Position numbers and translations under genes: made by a program. Under the pieces are notes generated by a model, which saw only the letters and a program-made list of their open reading frames with translations, did no database searches and was not told the origin of the DNA. 64,000 bases of DNA from Klebsiella phage Magnus. Below, piece after piece: positions 18,063 to 45,008 of the stretch. Numbering within the stretch: position 1 is the stretch's first letter; the number at the start of each line of letters is the position of its first letter. The DNA lies in sequence record NC_049462.1. One strand, given 5' to 3'.

Positions 18063-18698
18063 CTACTTTCTGAAGATATCCAGGAACTTCAGGATCTCAG
18101 ACATAAAGCCTCCCCGCTTACGTTCGGCTGAAATCTTTTTAGATTCAGGAACCGGAATAGAACTATCGTGACGTAATTGACGGGACAAAGAACCATCATC
18201 TTTGACGACACGAGTTGGTGGCGGCACAGGTGGTGCTGGCGGGAGCGGAACTTCGCGACTACGCACCATGGTTTCATAGTCCCGAGCGATCTCAATATAT
18301 TTCCGGCGCTCAGTGAAGAAATCAACTGCTTTCACTTTCCGGCGGCGGGCATGAGAACTCTCTTCACCATAGTAGTCGTAATTGTTACGAACCATCCAGT
18401 TCACGGCTTGTTCAAACGTGTTGAACACCAGAATGGGAATGCCGTCGCCTTTCTCAATACAATCCAGTGAAGAGTACCCGACAATGACGGTCATACCTTT
18501 CTGGAACAATTTACAGGGGATGGCGTTACCCGGAGTGTTGCGGTTGCGCGGGACGATATGATCTTCACGGTGAACAAAGTTCGGATACAAGAACTCATTG
18601 AGAGTTCCCTTGTAGCCCTTGTATGTGTACATACGGACGAATGGAGGAACGTCAACGACCACGTCGTTCAATTCCCAGATAGTAACATTGCGCATCAA
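18063..18698 (-). CDS. hypothetical protein (211 aa) with a Pro-rich linker
   Basis: ORF. Confidence 0.5.
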   Translation of the reverse strand: MMRNVTIWELNDVVVDVPPFVRMYTYKGYKGTLNEFLYPNFVHREDHIVPRNRNTPGNAIPCKLFQKGMTVIVGYSSLDCIEKGDGIPILVFNTFEQAVNWMVRNNYDYYGEESSHARRRKVKAVDFFTERRKYIEIARDYETMVRSREVPLPPAPPVPPPTRVVKDDGSLSRQLRHDSSIPVPESKKISAERKRGGFMSEILKFLDIFRK

Positions 18699-18779
18699 TA
18701 TTTCCTCAGTTCATGGTTGGACACTGAATTATAACGCGATTCGGTTATAGATTAACCTATTTGAGAATCAGAATTATAG

Positions 18780-18812
18780 ACAAAAAGAAGCCCGGTATCC
18801 TTACCGGGCTTT
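18780..18812 (-). terminator. strong rho-independent terminator ending the minus-strand tRNA/ncRNA transcription unit
   Basis: Perfect 10-bp stem AAGCCCGGTA/TACCGGGCTT with a 4-nt loop, followed on the minus strand by CUUUUUG. Confidence 0.6.
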
Positions 18813-18865
18813 GATAAAGACCAAAATCACATGGCCTATTCGCAGTTATGCTACACAGATTATTG

Positions 18866-18892
18866 GGAGAGTGCGCCGGGAATCGAACCCAG
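18866..18892 (-). ncRNA. tRNA T-arm-like element (GGGTTCGATTCCC) that could not be extended into a canonical cloverleaf
   Basis: Perfect T-stem/loop consensus, but no complementary acceptor arm was found by eye. Confidence 0.2.
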
Positions 18893-19020
18893 AGTCATCA
18901 GAACTTAGAAAGCTATGTGCATTTCACCTACGGTTCTGTGATTTATTCTTCCTCAACTCCAGATTAAGAAACAGGGGCATGCACACCTTACTGTTCCCGC
19001 AGGAAGTCGCACCCATAATT

Positions 19021-19094
19021 TGGAAGGAGCACCAGGATTCGAACCTGAGATCATGGGATCAAAGCCCATTGCCTTACCGCTTGGCTATGCTCCT
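19021..19094 (-). tRNA. tRNA-Gln (anticodon TTG)
   Basis: Hand-folded cloverleaf: acceptor AGGAGCA/TGCTCCT, D-arm GCCAAGCGGTAAGGCA (as in E. coli tRNA-Gln), anticodon loop CTTTGAT, T-arm CAGGTTCGAATCCTG, encoded CCA. Confidence 0.75.
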
Positions 19095-19680
19095 GTAATT
19101 TGGACGGGCTTCTCACCCGATTGTGCATTTGATCTGCCGTAGCCCAACTCCCCGCGTCGTAACGCCGATTGGTTAACCGGCAACCAGTGCCTTCTGGTTC
19201 GATCTCCTGGAACTTTACAGGCTTCGCGCCAAACCATTTCTGGTAGTTGGGGCATCGTTTCCGATGTGGAGTCACCCCATTTTTACACAGCTGGCTGCAA
19301 CGCTTACTGTGTTTGTATCAGAGTGTCCGGTGTAGCATTCCGTGAGGTGCGCACTACTGTAGCCTCTACACTCTGAATTTGTATGAAGTGGGAATCACTC
19401 TCCTGGGCGTCTGTATCCTGCAACCTTACATTGGCAGCTATCGCGCGATTCACACTTCCGAAGGCGCTTCGAGACACTCCACTTCAATTTGGTCCGGAAC
19501 CCGGTTCTGGGCCACGCTTGAGGACATCGGCCGTCCTTCCTCAGCTAATCAACCGGGTTCCAGATTTGGTGGGCGTTACTTTCGTCGGTTTCAGATTCCG
19601 TTCGGCTATTGGACGTTGTCCCAAAGAACTTGTCGGTCGCTTACTTCGTGCTTACTCGCTTTCGTTTCACACCCATTGTC

Positions 19681-19756
19681 TGGCGATGGTGGCAGGACTT
19701 GAACCTGCGACATACGATTTAACAGACCGCCGTTCTACCGACTGAACTACACCATC
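19681..19756 (-). tRNA. tRNA-Asn (anticodon GTT)
   Basis: Acceptor GATGGTG/CACCATC, D-arm GTTCAGTCGGTAGAAC, anticodon loop CTGTTAA, T-arm GCAGGTTCAAGTCCTGC, encoded CCA. Confidence 0.8.
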
Positions 19757-19763
19757 ATCAATT

Positions 19764-19849
19764 TGGTGGAAGATACAGGATTCGAACCTGTGCAACCTTT
19801 CGGTTGTACACCTTAGCAGGGTGCTGCAATACCGCTCTGCCAATCTTCC
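19764..19849 (-). tRNA. tRNA-Ser (anticodon GCT), type II with a long variable arm
   Basis: Acceptor GGAAGAT/ATCTTCC, anticodon loop CTGCTAA, 16-nt variable arm ACAACCGAAAGGTTGC, T-arm ACAGGTTCGAATCCTGT, encoded CCA. Confidence 0.8.
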
Positions 19850-20052
19850 TATTTATTCGCTTCTATGGCTCGAAGTTGCTTCTCAGCGTCTTCTTTGGAG
19901 TCATGTGTTCCCAAAACCTTTGTTTTGGTATGGTCCAACACAACCCAATGATCACCACGCTTTTCAACAAACTCAACTATCGGCTCGTCATTACATTCAC
20001 TGAGATAATCACTGAACGATTTCATCATACTCACCAATTGTTTATTGAACAA
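19849..20052 (-). CDS. small hypothetical protein (<=67 aa) between tRNA genes
   Basis: ORF-track entry with a non-ATG start; an internal Met start is possible; the stop overlaps the tRNA-Ser 5' end by 1 nt. Confidence 0.3.
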   Translation of the reverse strand: MFNKQLVSMMKSFSDYLSECNDEPIVEFVEKRGDHWVVLDHTKTKVLGTHDSKEDAEKQLRAIEANK

Positions 20053-20201
20053 CTGGTTTATTTATTCTGTAACCAACAGCAGTTTTTGTCATAGTGAAAT
20101 TATTGCCATCACCATCTTTATACAAAACACCATCAGATTTTTCGTTCAAAGACTGTTCTGAACGGCGAATCTTTTCTTTTAATGATACTTTGCCTTTCAT
20201 G
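20043..20201 (-). CDS. small hypothetical protein (52 aa) between tRNA genes
   Basis: Hand-translated 'MKGKVSLKEKIRRSEQSLNEKSDGVLYKDGDGNNFTMTKTAVGYRINKPVVQ'. Confidence 0.25.
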
Positions 20202-20216
20202 TTCAATCTCTTATTT

Positions 20217-20293
<77 letters not shown>

Positions 20294-20296
20294 ATA

Positions 20297-20372
<76 letters not shown>

Positions 20373-20399
20373 AAAATCTTTTAATTCATATTGTCGTGG

Positions 20400-23300
20400 A
20401 CAATACCAAGACAGAGGGTTGGAATCTCTTATCCTATAGCGACCCATAAACCGTTTGATCAGTCCGGCCTAAAGGATTACCCACGACAATATGAACTGTT
20501 TACTCTTTGGTCTGGGGGAGGATTTACCTCCCCCATTCCTCCCGGTTTGGGCAGCGATCTCTCACTCAACCAGGGCGCCGGCAAATTTTAGATCAATTCT
20601 ACAGGTTTGTAACCGCGCTGTCGCCAAGTCATGTTGCTTCTCCTATCATTATTTGACCGCACTTATGGCGGGCCGGGTTTTAATAGTTGAGTTGTGATCA
20701 ACCAAGGGCTGCTAGACCTTTTATCCCGTTTGCGCATGATCAGTTCATGCGAGTCTTATCAAGCACCTTACGGCAACTCTTCTGGATGTCATCGCCCTGC
20801 TGCCAGGCTCATCCCAGGAGTTTATTTTTCCAGGGCTTTCCACTTACAAGTCTTAACCAGACCGGGATACGGGCTTGTAAGATCGGGTTGGACACAACTT
20901 TGAGGACACTGACGACGTCTACTAGTCACCCATAACTGATATTCGGATGCCAGTATCCTCAAAGTTGCAACCAATGTCGCAACTCGCACCTGAGTGAAAG
21001 TCAGGCACTTGTCTATTCGCTAGACCAGGCTGTTTGGTGTCGGGTGCCTCCCGATGACCTTAACACGGAAAATAAGGCCGGGTGTGATGAAACCATCAGA
21101 CTCAAGGAGATGAGACTATTCCGTTCCCTCTTGCGCTTAGCAGAATTCACCAAACATAGCAGCATCTATACAGAAGCAACTTGTCCTCTAACGCTCGGAC
21201 CAAACGAGGCTGGCTGGTTGATTCAGAGCCGCTGGTTGCTCCAGCAAGCATGGGTTGATAGCCCGGCAACATAGAATCACCCAAAGATGAAGAACATTCA
21301 TGACTCACACCACACCACGAATGGCCTGAAAGAGAATCGAACTCTTTAAATGCTCTTCATTTTGTGAACTTGAGAATACTACGCCTGTCTCGGGTTTCCC
21401 CTTAGTTCGGCCTCCCAGTCCTCGCCGCGCCGGGTAGCTAACCCTGATGGCTCGTCTGCTACTGAGTTCTTCTTGGTGCCCACCAGTGTCCGGAATGTGT
21501 AGGCATCGCAATCTGCAAGGCATGGTCTTTTTCACCCAATGCTCTCTCAAGTTCACAAATCGAAGTGCCCTGACTCAACAGTTGTGGCCCAACATATTGT
21601 TATCGTCTACCGGGCTGGCCGTCCACTTTGTAGATCAACCTTTGGGTTTAAGATAAATTGTCAAGGCACTTCGATTTGTGTGGATGTCATGCAAGACCGG
21701 GTGTCTGCCAGATCACCAGACATTGTGTTCAGTTTTGAACAGAGGCTGTAGGGTTATGAACCGCAACATGTCTTCAAACCTTGCACAATGAAATGTCATC
21801 TCAGTCCTGAATCACGTTCACGGTGGTGAGCCACTACAAGTGAGAACCGATTTGCATTTACCTTGCACTCCATCTTTGAGAGCATTCAGTGTACAACAGG
21901 CTCCGATATTGACTAGCGCTATTCCGGCGTCGGATTTAAGTTGCCTTTCCCCTGAAGTTCCATGCAGTTTCGCGTCTGACGCGGAATGCCCTCAAAGATG
22001 GAGCCGTTTTAGGGAGTCGAACCCAAATGTTCGGCCAGCGCTGACCTTACATCCCATCTGACTTAGGCAACCCACCTCTGCTTACTCAGGAGCTTATCCC
22101 CTTTGGACAGTCAGATATAACGGCATTTTATTTAACAATTCATTCAACTGATAACTTCAGGGGACCACTCTCATCTCCCCACATTTCGACCGCCCGGGAC
22201 GGTTTAGTGGTACGTCACTTGGTCTGTTACATGGTAGGAGCCGATTCTCCCTCGAATTACCTCTTGTCTGTATGCCTACAAACAATTTCACAGATTGCTG
22301 ACAAGTTATCATGTGAATGAATTGTCATTGCGTTGGCCGGTTACGTTTATCCGGCGTCTTTCGACCGTTTGCCCTTCTCACTTCCCCGACCAAACCGGAA
22401 CAGTGGGGAACTACGCAACCAAATGGTTTCTGCTATCAGCTTCATCAGGCGTAGTGTGTTCCGGCCCGGATACCTACTTGAAAGGCGGTGGTATCGTATG
22501 CTCATTGTGTGGTGGCCGGTGCTGATCTCCGGCTTTGCTTTATTGATGAGTCACCATCCCCCGCCCTAACTGCGTTTAGTTCACAATGGTGTGACTAATT
22601 CACCACCGCTTATCTCAGTCCGCAGAAACAAGGTCCCTACTACGCTTTTCAGTGTGATCTGCACTTAGTTCGCGCCCCAGGACAGCATTGGGAAAGCAAG
22701 CTATTGAACACGCGCATCAGCCTGCGCATTCACCACAACGGAAAGGGCACTGAGAGAAAGGAATCGAACCTTTAATGCGACTGGCCATTCATCTGAGTCG
22801 TCCGCTTCTTGGCTCCGTCTACCAATTTCCGGCACTACTCAATGCTCTTACCTGTTGTGTGCCCTGACTTATTAATCACATCTCAGGGCCGCAATGCGCC
22901 AGATTCTGTTACAGGGAACTGGAATACCCCGCTGACTTATAGGCTATTACGCCGCCATCAGAACTACATCATCGTTTGCATTTATCTTTGTGGTCAGTTT
23001 CTAAAAACCCGCAAAGTCGCGCACAACGAGAACGAAAACCTGTTTGAGCACAAGACACCATGTCCTGGATCACATCGAAGTGTTTGTCTAATGCCCAAAC
23101 AGCTTTTCGCTTCAGTGGGTTAACTATACTTTGTTAACCCTTATTGACAAAACTTTTTATTTGCCGGAACTTACGCATCCGGCCTCGTCCTGTTGGCGCT
23201 CCTAGAATCCGGGAAGACAGTAGGAACAATTATGTTACCAACAGGAAACCTTTGTGTTGCCCTTTGACGCAACATTATGAACCCTCTTTAGAAGACTCAT

Positions 23301-23585
23301 AATGTTGTCGGTGTGATGAGGATTACCAGCCCTCGACCTTCCCATCGTGCGGTGTCGACTCGCCGCCGGGATGCTCTCGTCTCCGCTTTGCGGGTACTTT
23401 TCTGAGCTAATCACACTTTCAACAGGGAGTTTCGTTCTCCGACGGTTAGTGCGTCCACCAACACCAGCAGGGTTACTGCGCTGCCTCTATTCACACAAGC
23501 CCCTGAGACTAGGGGTTAACTGGTTTCGGGTTCAAGCCTACTCCCACTGTGCTGTTTCCCTTGAAATTTTATGATACTACAACAC
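20400..23585. ncRNA. Candidate large structured non-coding RNA region (one or several RNAs); it has no convincing ORFs and is rich in long-range helices
   Basis: No ORF >=60 aa on the gene-sense (minus) strand except an Arg-rich 83-aa artefact. Perfect or near-perfect long-range inverted repeats at 21553-21568/21664-21679 (16 bp), 21867-21886/21984-22003 (19 of 20) and 20895-20906/20956-20967 (12 bp), plus many local hairpins. T-arm-like motifs at about 21341-21356, 22011-22024 and 22763-22779. GC is higher than the flanks by eye. Confidence 0.35.
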
Positions 23586-23587
23586 GG

Positions 23588-23761
23588 CTAATTTGAAAAG
23601 TCCTCTCCTCTTGAGCAACAGGACCTGAAATCCTGCGGCGAACCTCTGCTCAAAACCCGGTGCGCTATCGAAGGCGCTTTACCAGAGTAAACATCGGGTG
23701 TTCCCAGGAGAGTGAAGGCCATCCCGATGATGAGGATAAGGAGTAACGCTATGATTGTCAT
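23588..23761 (-). CDS. small hydrophobic membrane peptide (57 aa)
   Basis: Hand-translated 'MTIIALLLILIIGMAFTLLGTPDVYSGK...' with a strong RBS (GGGAGGGAACAGT) 5 nt before the ATG. Confidence 0.45.
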   Translation of the reverse strand: MTIIALLLILIIGMAFTLLGTPDVYSGKAPSIAHRVLSRGSPQDFRSCCSRGEDFSN

Positions 23762-23818
23762 ACTGTTCCCTCCCTTCCATGCAACTTACTTTACTGTAAT
23801 TCTGTATTGAATAAAGCG

Positions 23819-24427
23819 TTATTTTACCACAGAAAACTTCACAACCTTCTCTAGGATAAACACATATTCCTGAGCAGCTGCATTCGACATATAATGCGTA
23901 GACGGAATAGAATGTGAATTCGTTGTTTCGCCCAGATTAACACGGTCACACCAGCCATTGATGGCATTACCGTAGAAGCCGATGATCGCAACGAAGTAGA
24001 TGCGCTGACTTTCTGGTTCCAGAACATAGTTGATCGTGAACGCAGTGTCCGTGCGGACGGCTTCCAGTTTGATCCCAATACGACATTCCGGCATGTTGGG
24101 ACGAACATATAAATGACGGAAGCGGTCGCGGCGGGCGGTGGAAGATTGTTCCAGTTCGTTGCGGAACTCACTCGTGACGTCGATGTTAAATGAAAAGGTG
24201 TTGTGTTTCATATCGGAACGAGCAAGGGAAACCGCATTGTCGATAACGCGACGGAAATTTACCCCTTTATTTGTCAGGAGTTTAACTTCCTCAGCAATTG
24301 TCGTCAAAGAAATTTTGGTGGCTTGTTGTCCTTCATATTTTTCTAATAAAGGAATGATGTGTTTCATAACTGCGGTGTTAATGTGCATAATAAGATCCTC
24401 TTGTAGAATTGAAATAAACACCATCAT
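23819..24427 (-). CDS. hypothetical protein (190-202 aa)
   Basis: ORF; the start is probably at MHINTAV (24388). Confidence 0.5.
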   Translation of the reverse strand: MMVFISILQEDLIMHINTAVMKHIIPLLEKYEGQQATKISLTTIAEEVKLLTNKGVNFRRVIDNAVSLARSDMKHNTFSFNIDVTSEFRNELEQSSTARRDRFRHLYVRPNMPECRIGIKLEAVRTDTAFTINYVLEPESQRIYFVAIIGFYGNAINGWCDRVNLGETTNSHSIPSTHYMSNAAAQEYVFILEKVVKFSVVK

Positions 24428-24695
24428 TATAATAGAACGAATGTTATTGAATATTGGTCTCTAAATTACAGGAGTGTTTTATTAATAGGCAGAAACTACT
24501 TTTCTAACACATCTCTAGACTGTATGCTAACGCTGTGCCCTTCGAGTTGTGAGTGTCAACGAACAACGAGAAGCAGCCTCCCTGGCTGTGGAAGGGTGCC
24601 AGCCCGCACAGGGCGGTCTTACGAGCGAAGCGAGTTGATTAATATATTTGATAATAACGCGCGCGCGAGCAAATCCCTTTCTCTGTCTTCAACAG

Positions 24696-43100: not shown

Positions 43101-45008
43101 GGTTATCGTTATCGGACCACTGTGTCTACGCGCGACGTTTCGACTTATACGTACACGGATACTACCACCACTTCACTTTCTGGTGAACAGATTGTTGAGA
43201 CGCAGGTTATTCCGTACATGCGTTCGATCGAAATCAACTTTGACGCCAGCGGCTTGCGTCCGTTTACTCGGATGTATGCCTTCTTCTCTGGTCGGGATGT
43301 GAACCTGTATTGCAAACCGAACGGTGGGGCATACGGCGCAGCGCTGACAACAGATGCCAACGGTAATTTGAAAGGTGTGTTCAAAGTTCCACAGAATAAC
43401 ACCATTAAGTTCAATACTGGCGACAACGTCTTCCGTCTTACTGATAGTCCAGTGGATAGCAAGTCTGCTGATGATACTTTGACGAATGCCGAGATTGTTC
43501 ATAAATCATTCGGTAAGAAACAAGGTATCCAGAAGACTTATGTTAACACTCGTGTTCTGGGTTACACTGTATCAACTAAATCTGAAACGACTTCGTCTGA
43601 AGCCGTTGTTGGTCAGTGGCGAGATCCTATCGCACAGTCATTCATGGTCGCAACCAGCATTGGTGGTGAATATATTGAAGGTGTGGAAGTGTTCTTCTCA
43701 ACCAAGTCTCGAGATGTGCCAGTAACTCTGGAAATCCGTGAGATGAGCAATGGCCTCCCAGCGAGCACGGTCATCACCCGGAAAACTTTGAATCCATCTG
43801 ACGTCAAAGTATCGAATGATTCATCCCTCGGGACGAAATTCACTTTCGATTATCCGGTGTATCTGCAGGCAGGCACAGAGTTTGCTATCGTTCTGCTGGC
43901 AAACACCCAGGATTACAATGCTTACATCGCAGAGATGGGCAAAAAGAACTTGCTGTCGAATGAATATATCGCCAAACAGCCTTATACTGGTGTGTTCTTC
44001 ACTTCTTCAAACGGTTCAACCTGGTCTCCAAACCAAATGGCGGATATGAAATTCCGTGTGTATCGTTGTAATTTTGCTGCCGCTGATAACGTGGTGACAT
44101 TTACCCCGAACGCCGGGCCTAAAATTCGTCCTCTGGGTCTGAACGTCCTGAACTGCGTCAATGGTTCTACTGTTGTGACTGTTTACGCTCCTGGTCATGG
44201 TCTGGTTGCGGGTAACTCCGTGACGTTGTCAGAACTGACAGGCGGCTGCGGCTTTACAGCAGAGCAACTGAATAAAGTTCACACCGTCACGGATGCGAGC
44301 TATACTTCATTCAAGATTGATGTTGGCGCAGCGGCAGACAGCGATGGACAGATTGGTGGTGAAGATGGTTCTTTCTTGGGCAATTACCTGGTGGATATGT
44401 TCTATGCCAGCGTGACCAATTCAGCTCTGGAAGGTTCTATATTGAAACTGGAATACCGTTATCGTGATTCTACTTCCAATTCTATGTCTGATTGGGCCGA
44501 GTTTGAATCTGATACTGATGTTCCTCTGCCGACAGAAGGCATTTATCGTCAGGCCGGGGACTTCCAGGTGAGAGCCACCATGACTCGCAGCGCGAGCAAT
44601 GCGTACACGGCACCAATGATTGATGGTGATGACTTAACCGTGGTTCTCAACTCGCATGGCGTAGATCCTTTCGAGGACGTTTTCCGCTATGTGACCAAGG
44701 ACGTAAGTTTTGACAACCCGTGTACAACTTTGAAAATGTACTTCGGCGCGATGTTGCCTTCTCAGTCCACCATGACTGTACAGGTCAAACTTCTGCGCCC
44801 AGGGCAAGAAATGGATTCGATCGAATGGGAAACGGTTACACCGAATTCTCCTCTGGTCAACGATGGTTCCGCATTCTTTGAATATGAATACGATAAGACC
44901 GTCGACAGCAACAGTCCATTTTCAGCCCTGAAAGTCAGAGCATTAATTCGCGGAAGCCGGATAGTCCCACCTTCCTGCAAAGATTTCCGCTTGATCGCTC
45001 TGGCATAA
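40170..45008 (+). CDS. very large virion structural protein (1612 aa), probably a baseplate-associated fiber/scaffold on which the tailspikes may dock
   Basis: Longest ORF in the window; sits between the tailspike cluster and gp13; GC-normal composition. No T4 gp7 similarity recognised; start taken at MQQLNL (GGAG RBS). Confidence 0.55.
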   Translation: MQQLNLNRRPYWDDWNPEKRFSRILFRPNPIKVQTRELNQLQTILQDQIEKIGNHLFKDGSMVIPGGLTITNSAVSMKFQLAGGSEFTDLEGIQELYVIGKDNNAKARVLSLERYTSEPDMMFCILEMTESGTADGFSPNDNLYFNTYDVNDNFIRIGYGVAQTVGGSIVARMTKGVYFVRGFFLDVDDDMLVVNKYANNTSHRVGFKVTEEIVTEEQDSSLFSNAQGTPNTKAPGAHRLRLDLSLQAFDYDAEVEDFVELAKIKDGKIQSMVTQSTYNILEDTMAQRTYEQAGDYNVSTHQIDLREHLKENNNGGVYTPSEGGDESKLVAVMKPGISYVRGRRIENVGEELVIIDKARDTDLLNNTPVAVATGNFLTTKNSKGVPVISRSIRYKLLNASGVTQATALCISVDRTGTEFRLYMRDLVVTGDMSTVTKVAYEESGTTMFSAALETNQFSQSSSMDLIFELPVFGVKTLAPTGTIDINYTVLRSYKITLDASGNGSISAPLGYSFSPEFSLYSGAKSDGTAAQIDISSSLSLTGTPVGSALQISLGSGNALQSINLLALMVRTTAIIKTKTVTTATETVTFTNQASIQLANHDGYKLTSVKNANGADVTSNFTLDGGQRDAAYYKSSLISATGAISGAYTVEYTYFAHSTGDFFTADSYTSIDYKSIPSYTSSTSGTVYGLADSIDFRPKITNGASDTDMVRPNTAIIMDVEYYLPRIDAVYLADNGVFNVARGISSNNLAAPAIPANAMRLYELLIPPYTPDIDDIQIRTIDNRRYTMRDIGKLDTRISNVEYYTTLSQLESSAMTQQVFDPVTGNPRYKNGIAADPFKDFRLIDDLSPDWMGSVDTDNGRLRPFVQQNAIDLVPDGWNKVMDGMVVCQYTPEISVNQEYATTTINVNPYAVFNWTGFLKLNPTTDYWFENYYVAPRVINETINTRGAVQEGTVYGTWRTVSVSERVWEPHGAGGVWWGYRYRTTVSTRDVSTYTYTDTTTTSLSGEQIVETQVIPYMRSIEINFDASGLRPFTRMYAFFSGRDVNLYCKPNGGAYGAALTTDANGNLKGVFKVPQNNTIKFNTGDNVFRLTDSPVDSKSADDTLTNAEIVHKSFGKKQGIQKTYVNTRVLGYTVSTKSETTSSEAVVGQWRDPIAQSFMVATSIGGEYIEGVEVFFSTKSRDVPVTLEIREMSNGLPASTVITRKTLNPSDVKVSNDSSLGTKFTFDYPVYLQAGTEFAIVLLANTQDYNAYIAEMGKKNLLSNEYIAKQPYTGVFFTSSNGSTWSPNQMADMKFRVYRCNFAAADNVVTFTPNAGPKIRPLGLNVLNCVNGSTVVTVYAPGHGLVAGNSVTLSELTGGCGFTAEQLNKVHTVTDASYTSFKIDVGAAADSDGQIGGEDGSFLGNYLVDMFYASVTNSALEGSILKLEYRYRDSTSNSMSDWAEFESDTDVPLPTEGIYRQAGDFQVRATMTRSASNAYTAPMIDGDDLTVVLNSHGVDPFEDVFRYVTKDVSFDNPCTTLKMYFGAMLPSQSTMTVQVKLLRPGQEMDSIEWETVTPNSPLVNDGSAFFEYEYDKTVDSNSPFSALKVRALIRGSRIVPPSCKDFRLIALA

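Follow-up and report, generated by a model that had tools for sequence, protein, structure and literature searches.

Noncoding region and its phage

Beside a cluster of five transfer RNA (tRNA) genes, the genome of Klebsiella phage Magnus (NC_049462.1) has about 3.2 kb that hold no plausible gene. We analyzed this region (positions 20400-23585) within a window of 64,000 nt, by which we mean the whole stretch of phage DNA under study. To judge from its sequence and that of its relatives, the region is built as a mosaic of small, structured RNA cassettes that are separate from one another and all on the minus strand (Table 1). The first of them (23039-22861) reads as the messenger half of a transfer-messenger RNA (tmRNA, SsrA), preceded by a domain antisense to the tmRNA of the host. 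A first-pass annotation of the same DNA had already proposed an RNA nature for the region, and this stands; what it overlooked is the tag template joined to anti-tmRNA sequence.

The closest relative of the window region is Klebsiella phage Madison (98.5% identity; Ackermannviridae), followed by Menlow and 0507-KN2-1 (genus Taipeivirus). Because the region matches Ackermannviridae phages, the phage is not T4-like in the strict sense, as it had been called, and belongs with Ackermannviridae/Taipeivirus. Synteny is kept across the family: a divergent baseplate-wedge gene, a gene of ~200 aa, a small gene, a noncoding gap of 1-3.5 kb, and then tRNA genes. The 57-aa gene that flanks the region in the window (23588-23761) is a real gene (phrog_8415, E=3e-29).

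The longest open reading frame (ORF) within 18750-23585 encodes 104 aa, and the longer ORFs there match no PHROG family, apart from one marginal match (E=1e-3) to a plus-strand ORF of 104 aa (22809-23123) that overlies the tag module. Public annotations of other genomes place opposite-strand “hypothetical protein” ORFs over this module (Bas80_0056 at L001 2459-2824, VPRG_00076 at L003 1031-1318, and L308 512-943), and the marginal match probably reflects such mis-annotations. Compared pairwise with its counterparts in phages RPN242 and Mutine, the flanking gene shows codon-phased mismatches (51/27/91 at positions 1:2:3, p~1e-8), whereas six comparisons of noncoding blocks gave no phasing (p=0.33-0.84), and the majority of indels in these blocks are not multiples of 3. 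Protein coding was rejected given the lack of PHROG families and of codon-phased substitutions. The claim that the region is free of ORFs is thereby confirmed, and a protein-coding substitution pattern in relatives, which the first-pass annotation had named as a check, was seen in the flanking gene only. The region is noncoding and structured, on the strand of the tRNA genes.

The structure is dense. Counting inverted repeats of 11 nt or more that lie within 400 nt, the region has eight, and six of these are at least 19 nt long, versus zero to two in four coding controls of equal size, where the longest hairpin-type (nonoverlapping) repeat is 13 nt (one control additionally has a 22-nt overlapping palindrome). 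All three long-range pairings reported earlier are present and are longer than was given: repeat I5 (21554-21574/21660-21680, 21 nt, 95% complementary), repeat I1 (21868-21892/21979-22003, 25 nt, 88%), and a third at 20888-20911/20951-20974 (24 nt, 83%). The tRNA T-arm look-alikes also exist, at 21366-21329, 22024-21999, and 22773-22757. Folding z-scores are -5.3 (23116-22852), -4.8 (21700-21290), -2.5 (20992-20693), and -0.1 (the tRNA-like block). GC content, described earlier as clearly higher than in the flanks, is indeed raised, but only modestly (0.490 vs. 0.459 elsewhere); the region ranks 12th among 122 windows of equal size.

One RNA or many

Klebsiella phages cover 56-92% of the region in two to five pieces, and Salmonella and Escherichia coli phages of the genus Kuttervirus cover 30-48%. 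Some pieces occur alone in unrelated phages, including T1-like, N4-like, and lambdoid ones: 22535-22370 is also in a 46-kb Klebsiella siphovirus, 21284-21204 is also in a 76-kb Klebsiella phage, and 23040-22852 is found in many phage lineages. Noncoding blocks are 92-99% identical between genera in which the flanking gene is ~70% identical.

The first-pass annotation had proposed a single giant ornate RNA. One RNA of ~3 kb, of the GOLLD or ROOL type, would fit the dense structure beside tRNA genes and the presence of just one clear promoter-like site and a single terminator around the region. We nevertheless regard it as extremely improbable. The pieces are separate and reordered in relatives and in unrelated phages, which speaks against one giant RNA, and the strong helices are all local, with spans of at most ~330 nt. 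Further, an Rfam search of 18600-24000 gave no match to GOLLD, ROOL, group I-II introns, or RNase P RNA at gathering thresholds, or even at E<=5, and all of these candidates were rejected on that basis. STnc100 is the only Rfam family above threshold inside 20400-23585. No tRNA with an anticodon-arm cloverleaf was found there (ARAGORN default settings, RF00005), and ARAGORN at relaxed thresholds reports only tRNA-like pieces with long inserts. The covariance-model and ARAGORN searches that had been recommended thus recovered STnc100 and the five tRNAs, and no GOLLD, ROOL, intron, RNase P, or tmRNA above family thresholds. Among the options listed at first pass, “several RNAs” or “degenerate tRNA arrays” came closest to the truth.

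Table 1. Features of the RNA region and its surroundings, in the order of the minus strand
Feature	Position	Strand	Basis or remark
Sigma-70-like promoter, TTGTCA-16 nt-TATAGT	23150-23123	minus	Best promoter-like site in 18600-24600, 10/12 matches
Hairpin X, long and imperfect, 3' base overlapping the first anti-tmRNA bases	23032-23110	minus	Minimum free energy and centroid folds
Anti-ssrA domain GTTTTCGTTCTCGTTGTGCGCGACTTTGCGGGTTTTTA, invariant 5' 38 nt of module	23002-23039	minus	Antisense to host tmRNA nt 67-105
22-nt linker GAAACTGACCACAAAGATAAAT, with 3' strands of pseudoknot PK1 and A(-4) before the resume codon	22980-23001	minus	Constant length
tmRNA-type tag frame, GCA resume codon, 10 codons (ANDDVVLMAA), TAA TAG	22944-22979	minus	Translation checked
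H-type pseudoknot PK2, just 3' of tag	22892-22932	minus	Stem covariation
Hairpin H4, conserved loop GUGUGAUUAAUAA, 3' end of conserved module	22861-22890	minus	At least six compensatory stem variants
Y hairpin CACAACAGGTAAGAGCATTG...CAGTGCCCTTTCCGTTGTG with tRNA-like insert (T-arm 22773-22757)	22733-22861	minus	Family of Y hairpins
Domain Z, GTTGTGGTG ... GCCGGAGATCAGCACCGGC-CACCACA, helix-closed, degenerate, tRNA-derived	22507-22741	minus	Common to many loci
Cassette common to ~72-kb Salmonella phages	22138-22322	minus	72-78% identity to SP154, As2
tRNA-like RNA, acceptor GCCGTT/AACGGC, T-arm GGGTTCGACTCCC, 3' UCCA, without anticodon loop	21999-22124	minus	Cloverleaf-like fold
Y-type hairpin 2, core GAGGGCATTC...GAATGCTCTC	21868-22003	minus	Inverted repeat I1
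Y-type hairpin 3, CACAAATCGAAGTGCC...GGCACTTCGATTTGTG	21554-21680	minus	Inverted repeat I5
T-loop-capped hairpin AAAGAGTTCGATTCTCTTT inside a degenerate Y hairpin	21329-21366	minus	Read in sequence
STnc100-family small RNA	20970-21184	minus	Rfam RF02076, 52.9 bits vs. gathering score 47, model 1-206 of 206
~300-nt structured RNA directly upstream of tRNA-Met	20693-20990	minus	Conserved across Ackermannviridae
Five tRNA genes (Met, Arg, Ser, Asn, Gln), two small ORFs, and a 590-nt noncoding block	19021-20372	minus	ARAGORN, Rfam
Intrinsic terminator, 10-bp stem then T run	18811-18788	minus	Terminator-like site

Tag frame of the first cassette

The first cassette was found by aligning the window with the unrelated phages that share 23040-22852; nhmmer puts the limits of the conserved module at 23038-22852. 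The exposed sequence runs ...AGAAACTGACCACAAAGATAAAT GCA AAC GAT GAT GTA GTT CTG ATG GCG GCG TAA TAG. The frame has neither a start codon nor a Shine-Dalgarno sequence, and there is an in-frame TAG eight codons upstream (read from the sequence). Three tmRNA models in Rfam (RF00023, RF01849, RF04321) score below gathering, with 24.7 bits for alpha_tmRNA (threshold 50), 26.5 for tmRNA_permuted (47), and 7.1 for tmRNA (47). The subthreshold matches of alpha_tmRNA and tmRNA_permuted align exactly on the resume region and tag.

Two IMG/VR scans and the Ackermannviridae loci yielded >125 copies of the module, of which 95 are unique. Their tag frames come in 32 nucleotide versions that encode 18 peptides, and every frame has exactly 10 codons. 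All of the peptides begin with AN(D/E); the ending is, with few exceptions, a hydrophobic residue and then (A/V)A. Variation peaks at third codon positions, and codons 1, 2, 3, and 10 vary there only; the pattern of substitutions demonstrates coding-type constraint on the tag frame. The length of the linker before the resume codon and A(-4) are constant in all variants seen. The base at position -4 of E. coli tmRNA, A86, is an essential frame-setting base (PMC2481249).

Pseudoknots are predicted on both sides of the tag. Upstream, the second stem of the H-type pseudoknot PK1 covaries (CTTTG/CAAAG, ACTTT/AAAGT, and, in 8/8, TTATG/CATAA). Downstream, stem 1 of PK2 has at least six Watson-Crick variants, and stem 2 has four (CCGA/TCGG, GTCG/CGAC, CCAG/CTGG, CCAA/TTGG) and is paired in 95/95 copies. 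The pseudoknots were scored by motif-anchored parsing and pair counting (RNAalifold on a MAFFT alignment gave fragments, with two structural subtypes misaligned). On alignment A2, 85% of cells are paired, versus 75% in shuffles and 40-57% in slid controls. Double-change cells number 67 vs. 23, and the covariation score is 0.230 vs. 0.109 in shuffles, with 0/500 shuffles reaching the observed values. We also considered a kissing partner for the H4 loop GUGUGAUUAAUAA. There is a 10-bp match at ~22590, but across the 95 copies the best complements are at shuffle expectation, and the match was rejected as chance. From these features, the first cassette can be described as the messenger half of a tmRNA.

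Antisense match to host tmRNA

The invariant elements at the 5' end of the module are the reverse complement of segments of E. coli ssrA, in collinear order. Among 32 variants of the domain, 24-31 positions are identical to the reverse complement of ssrA 67-105 (AGTTTTCGTCGTTTGCGACTATTTTTTGCGGCTTTTTAC), as in the aligned example GTTTTCGTCACGTTAGCGAC-----TTTGCGGACTTTTTA. RNAduplex pairs the domain of the window with Klebsiella pneumoniae ssrA at nt 67-105 (-34.7 kcal/mol), and 13/14 of the commonest variants pair end-to-end with E. coli ssrA 67/68-105; for the 14th, taken as a longer extraction that includes upstream sequence, the pairing extends to nt 173. Energies of these 14 are -27 to -37 kcal/mol (z -1.4 to -6.0, weakest for the 14th), and shuffled sequences did as well in 0-1/100 cases for the 13 variants and in 10/100 for the 14th.

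The predicted duplex would take up host A86-C91, which comprises the frame-setting A86 and two bases at the start of the resume codon. It would also include the 3' strand of PK1 and the greater part of codons 1-5. A short internal loop interrupts the pairing, and A81-U85 are bulged. Pairing of the domain to the host is much stronger (-33.2±3.0 kcal/mol) than to the homologous template in its own module (-16.3±2.8 kcal/mol), and the host was the stronger partner in 47/47 comparisons. The antisense copy has stayed matched to ssrA while the sense copy drifted, which argues for selection on pairing in trans. An exact 33-nt target is present in the tmRNA of K. pneumoniae and of 74 other species, mostly Enterobacterales and Vibrionaceae. 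By these predictions, the complementarity to the host ssrA site is both extended and conserved. The arms of the upstream hairpin X (GCGAAAAGCTGTTTG/CAAACAGGTTTTCGT) are kept in Ackermannviridae copies.

The ssrA 33-mer also occurs exactly in 250-570 nt contigs assigned to unrelated bacteria (Siminovitchia, Flavihumibacter, Agromyces, and others; L237, L238, L246, L249, L255, L261, L266, L286, L294, L297, L301), where it is most likely assembly contamination.

Extended complementarity over A86 and the resume codon could also serve a pure antisense inhibitor, which is the main rival to the interpretation given below. Host tmRNA would be sequestered or cleaved by RNase III, tagging would be shut down, and the tag frame would be an untranslated leftover or scaffold. 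Anti-tmRNA oligonucleotides do block tmRNA in vitro (PMC3384345), and a tmRNA fragment of phage DS6A consisting only of the tRNA-like domain is reported to inhibit tmRNA (PMC4131195), so that phage interference with tmRNA has precedent. We consider inhibition alone unlikely because of the frame itself. Its length of exactly 10 codons is preserved, as are its stops (double or single) and A(-4), behind a linker of fixed length, and its 32 versions in unrelated phage lineages show synonymous third-position variation. An unread frame would not keep these properties.

Search for a tRNA-like half

A complete tmRNA would carry a tRNA-like domain with an acceptor stem. By default, ARAGORN reports no tmRNA in the window or in Bas80, IME11, or pYD38-A, and no G3-U70 pair is present in the candidate acceptor stems (GCCGTT/AACGGC, GTTGTGG/CCACAAC). 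The elements 3' of the module differ between copies (Y hairpins, degenerate tRNA-derived domains, or true tRNAs), and the arms that follow it are mostly non-T-loop hairpins of the form GCCGG-AGATCAGCA-CCGGC. A canonical T-arm plus CCA follows the module in only 2/95 unique copies, both of the E. coli 55989 prophage type. In T1-like phages, a strong promoter (TTGACA...TAGATT) lies only a few bases before the module, and there is therefore no upstream source of an acceptor strand. The complete 47-kb genome of Bas80, in which a promoter of the module's own stands at the 5' end of the RNA, contains no acceptor candidate.

In the E. coli 55989 prophage (L124 3900-4360), the module is followed by a tRNA-like domain with T-arm GCCGGTTCGATTCCGGC and the end ...CCACAAC-CCA. 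ARAGORN at a 90% threshold reports a tmRNA here with the tag ANDDVVLMAA. We read its 8-bp acceptor, with a G(-1):C73-like arrangement, as resembling that of tRNA-His. A canonical or permuted tmRNA in cis was rejected, given that default ARAGORN is negative, that relaxed calls are mostly spurious, and that only the 55989 variant looks complete. As the copies compared indicate, the tRNA-like domain is absent in cis.

This leaves the question of whether the phage itself supplies the other half as a separate molecule. In such a two-piece tmRNA, the module would be the coding piece, a phage tRNA-like RNA would be the acceptor, and host tmRNA would not be needed. Natural two-piece forms exist (PMC11915505), and RNAs with a T-arm and CCA do lie just downstream. 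Candidate acceptors are the RNA at 22124-21999 with its UCCA end, domain Z, and the Y tip. The tRNA-like RNA is adjacent to the module in RPN242 and L223, and in the 55989 prophage ARAGORN (90%) joins the module to a canonical T-arm, acceptor, and CCA. On balance we judge this arrangement distinctly unlikely. No candidate has the G3-U70 alanine identity pair, and the partners are inconsistent: the tRNA-like RNA is mostly deleted in 0507-KN2-1, the canonical T-loop arm is limited to the 2/95 copies noted above, and Bas80 has none. Neither is there conserved complementarity between the module and a cis partner, and the antisense match to host ssrA would go unexplained.

Proposed docking on host tmRNA

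Given a coding-constrained frame that lacks initiation signals and an acceptor, yet has a handle for tmRNA, docking on host tmRNA with a swap of the tag is the most economical reading. We favor, tentatively and with slightly less than even confidence, an array of RNA cassettes co-transcribed with tRNAs, of which the first would be a tmRNA-derived RNA that docks on host tmRNA and substitutes the tag. The primary transcript, which would include the tRNA genes, would probably be cut apart by tRNA-processing and double-strand RNases. The phage RNA released would base-pair with host tmRNA, opening PK1 and burying A86, the resume codon, and codons 1-5. At a distance of 22 nt from the duplex, the phage resume codon would then be offered beside the host tRNA-like domain and SmpB. 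Stalled ribosomes would still be rescued, and the nascent chains would receive (A)ANDDVVLMAA instead of (A)ANDENYALAA. Transcription, processing, docking in vivo, and template substitution are all steps that we infer from sequence.

Several points weigh against this proposal. When the module and K. pneumoniae tmRNA are cofolded at full length (RNAcofold), the net gain is only -9.7 kcal/mol, and 2/20 shuffled-domain controls equal it. Hairpin X takes up the first bases of the antisense domain in this window. The BLAST match to ssrA in this one window alone is not significant (E=1.2), and the case therefore rests on conservation across the family. The same nucleotides form the module's own PK1, and their invariance could partly reflect intramolecular folding. 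A phage labelled as infecting Acinetobacter baumannii, vB_AbaM_AB4P2 (L308), carries an E. coli-type domain. Finally, in such a model the ribosome would have to load a template that is held to tmRNA by a duplex of ~35 bp.

With regard to AB4P2, its promoter, anti-ssrA domain, and tag are nearly identical to those of E. coli phage Bas80, and the domain is identical to the Bas80 type. This leaves two possibilities: a doubtful host label, or a module that is carried although its target is not matched.

Distribution of the module

Searches with nhmmer found the module in Taipeivirus, Kuttervirus, Agtrevirus, RPN242, and Miltonvirus, and did not find it in LIMEstone1. By BLAST it is present in 527/50,697 phage records, from genomes of ~46, ~53, ~72, ~88, ~115, and ~157 kb. 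The hosts of these phages are nearly all Enterobacterales, and the module is almost always unannotated. It is also in 169/5,426 complete E. coli genomes; in the one inspected (E. coli 55989), its neighbors on either side are the Q antiterminator and the holin gene.

At least six lineages are represented: Ackermannviridae, T1-like, G7C/N4-like, FelixO1-like, P1-like, and lambdoid. It is possible, and we put this forward with more reserve, that phages of at least six lineages encode an acceptor-less coding piece that reprograms host tmRNA, such that the working molecule would be a tmRNA in trans made of one host RNA and one viral RNA. The combination of an antisense match to host tmRNA and a tag template in one RNA suggests interference with ribosome rescue by many enterobacterial phages.

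The remaining cassettes

An element that recurs is a long hairpin, the Y hairpin, with core GGTAAGAGCATT...AGTGCTCTT(T/A)(T/C)C and closing pair CACAAC/GTTGTG. We counted 210 distinct copies in the fetched loci (L001-L226), often several per locus, with tips of 17-295 nt, some of them T-arm-like. The paired bases covary (CACAAC/GTTGTG, CGTAAC/GTTGCG, ACTATC/GATAGT). A Y hairpin is found even in the late leader of phage lambda, between Q and S (CACAACAGGTAAGAGCATTG[tip]CAGTGCTCTTTCCGTTGTG, lambda 44787-44862). In the copy that follows the tag module, the tip is tRNA-like according to relaxed-threshold ARAGORN, and the helices 22003-21868, 21680-21554, and 20974-20888 have cores related to the Y hairpin (read from the sequence). 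The element may be a common scaffold or border of RNA cassettes.

Domain Z has a homologue in E. coli 55989 and L122 with a canonical T-arm followed by CCA or CA, which ARAGORN reports as tRNA-like. The Salmonella-type cassette is closed by the 23-nt inverted repeat I3 (22135-22157/22303-22325). The block that contains the tRNA-like RNA (22127-21984) is 94-99% identical in 216 Ackermannviridae records, whereas the flanking gene is ~70% identical. In RPN242 and L223 this RNA comes directly after the tag module; neither default ARAGORN nor Rfam calls it. At 21322-21431, relaxed-threshold ARAGORN reports a further tRNA-like element. The STnc100-family RNA is present also in phage 0507-KN2-1.

The ~300-nt RNA upstream of tRNA-Met matches no Rfam family. 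It is kept in every Ackermannviridae genus sampled, including Dickeya phage LIMEstone1 and Serratia phage phiMAM1, and in an alignment of seven phages from at least five genera, 17 of its 76 predicted pairs show compensatory changes.

Both 0507-KN2-1 (L127 4806-5366) and Mutine (L126 3060-3515) have HNH homing-endonuclease genes inserted where cassettes meet. In 0507-KN2-1, the HNH gene takes the place of hairpin X immediately before the anti-ssrA domain, and the tRNA-like RNA is mostly deleted.

Mosaicism, HNH genes at cassette borders in relatives, recurring boundary sequences (CACAAC/GTTGTG), and degenerate tRNA-like pieces are also what might be expected of a recombination-prone junk or “hyperplastic” region, made up of decayed tRNAs and endonuclease scars, in which the repeats would be borders for shuffling at the DNA level and only the tRNAs would be functional. 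This we think highly unlikely, as the blocks are far better conserved than the neighboring genes, several helices have compensatory base-pair changes, one cassette is a small RNA (sRNA) at the Rfam level, and the tag is under coding-type constraint.

Probable extent of the transcription unit

The best promoter-like site lies just upstream of hairpin X. Its segment TATAGTTAAC(C/T)CA(C/T)TGAA is conserved in ChubbyThor and P46FS4, and from TAAC onward also in Mutine and RPN242; the Mutine counterpart is complete (TTATCA-16-TATAGT). It is likely to be the start of an RNA operon. At the other end, the first-pass annotation had placed a strong terminator at 18780-18812, and this is borne out by the sole minus-strand terminator-like site within 18600-24500. 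Given a conserved promoter-like site and a sole terminator on that strand, a single primary transcript of ~4.3 kb, processed into many RNAs, is plausible. Co-transcription with the five tRNAs into this terminator, as was suggested, is plausible too; the tRNA genes are on the same strand.

One ORF among the tRNA genes (19849-20052) belongs to phrog_3684. Between tRNA-Gln and tRNA-Asn there is an ORF-free block of 590 nt (19095-19685, minus), parts of which are 90-99% identical to Salmonella phage Mutine without codon phasing; an Rfam search of it gives no family, and its folding z-score is -1.2. Near the terminator, a tRNA-like element (18866-19014, minus) has an acceptor GGGTGCG/CGCACTC, T-arm GGGTTCGATTCCC, and an insertion of ~50 nt. 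ARAGORN calls it a tRNA-Phe with an intron at relaxed threshold only, and it may be a tRNA that has decayed or been interrupted. The ~430 nt that precede the promoter-like site (23160-23585, minus) are likewise ORF-free, with ~76% identity to Mutine and no codon phasing, and the Mutine counterpart holds a T-arm-bearing tRNA-like element.

Comparison with known systems

Bacteria rescue ribosomes and control protein quality mainly by trans-translation, which is an antibiotic target and which some phages are known to need for growth. The module shares with tmRNA a GCA resume codon placed after U(-5)A(-4) without a start codon, a 10-residue tag of the AN(D/E)...AA type with stop codons in a hairpin, and pseudoknots before and after the tag, and it is there that the Rfam tmRNA models align. 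Two-piece tmRNAs demonstrate that the coding and acceptor parts need no covalent link. Unlike tmRNA, the module is without a tRNA-like domain or G3-U70, falls below Rfam and default ARAGORN thresholds, and has its own 5' domain antisense to host tmRNA. Also unlike tmRNA, it is encoded by phages of many lineages, often as a cassette beside tRNA genes or in a lambdoid late leader.

Phage tmRNAs are known from mycobacteriophages and Bacillus phage G (PMC4131195). The fragment of mycobacteriophage DS6A is the nearest parallel in that it is a phage-borne partial tmRNA thought to disturb host trans-translation (PMC4131195, PMC11915505). DS6A keeps the tRNA-like half only, whereas the module keeps the messenger half only and adds an antisense domain.

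Anti-tmRNA oligonucleotides suppress trans-translation in cell-free systems (PMC3384345). Synthetic anti-ssrA oligonucleotides, used in cell-free translation and ribosome display, are likewise antisense to the tag-template region. They are man-made DNA without a template, whereas the phage RNA is natural and structured and continues into its own tag frame. The classic anti-ssrA oligonucleotide, which we take to contain GTTTTCGTCGTTTGCGACTA, would be nearly the phage domain.

As for the other cassettes, the one at 21184-20970 passes the family threshold for the STnc100/PasD prophage sRNAs (RF02076; bioRxiv 10.64898/2026.05.13.724894), which also occur in phage noncoding islands, for example between Q and holin in lambdoid prophages. 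These are Hfq-dependent base-pairing sRNAs without tmRNA features, and they account for only ~215 nt of the 3.2 kb here; the Pas sRNA paper (bioRxiv 10.64898/2026.05.13.724894) does not mention tmRNA or ssrA. GOLLD and ROOL are similarly phage-borne, structured, and tRNA-adjacent, but there is no match to their models and the region is modular. The T4 tRNA cluster includes co-transcribed stable RNAs (species 1 and 2) that are freed by tRNA-processing enzymes. Both they and the array are small RNAs in a phage tRNA operon; the array is larger and more mosaic, has other sequences, and includes the tag module.

A literature search, incomplete in its coverage, on tag peptides, tmRNA-like RNAs of enterobacterial phages, and natural anti-tmRNA RNAs found no report of such a system. 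STnc100 is a known family, and we found no described mechanism in which a tmRNA is assembled in trans from host and viral RNA.

Implications

If true, docking with tag substitution would be a new kind of viral takeover of a host RNA machine, by a widespread and unannotated RNA that combines an antisense domain with a tag frame of its own. Hundreds of phage genomes, including those of Klebsiella, Salmonella, and E. coli therapy candidates, carry this and other RNA cassettes, which either lack annotation or are wrongly entered as small hypothetical proteins. It appears that the “gaps” next to tRNA genes in phage genomes are islands of exchangeable RNA genes.

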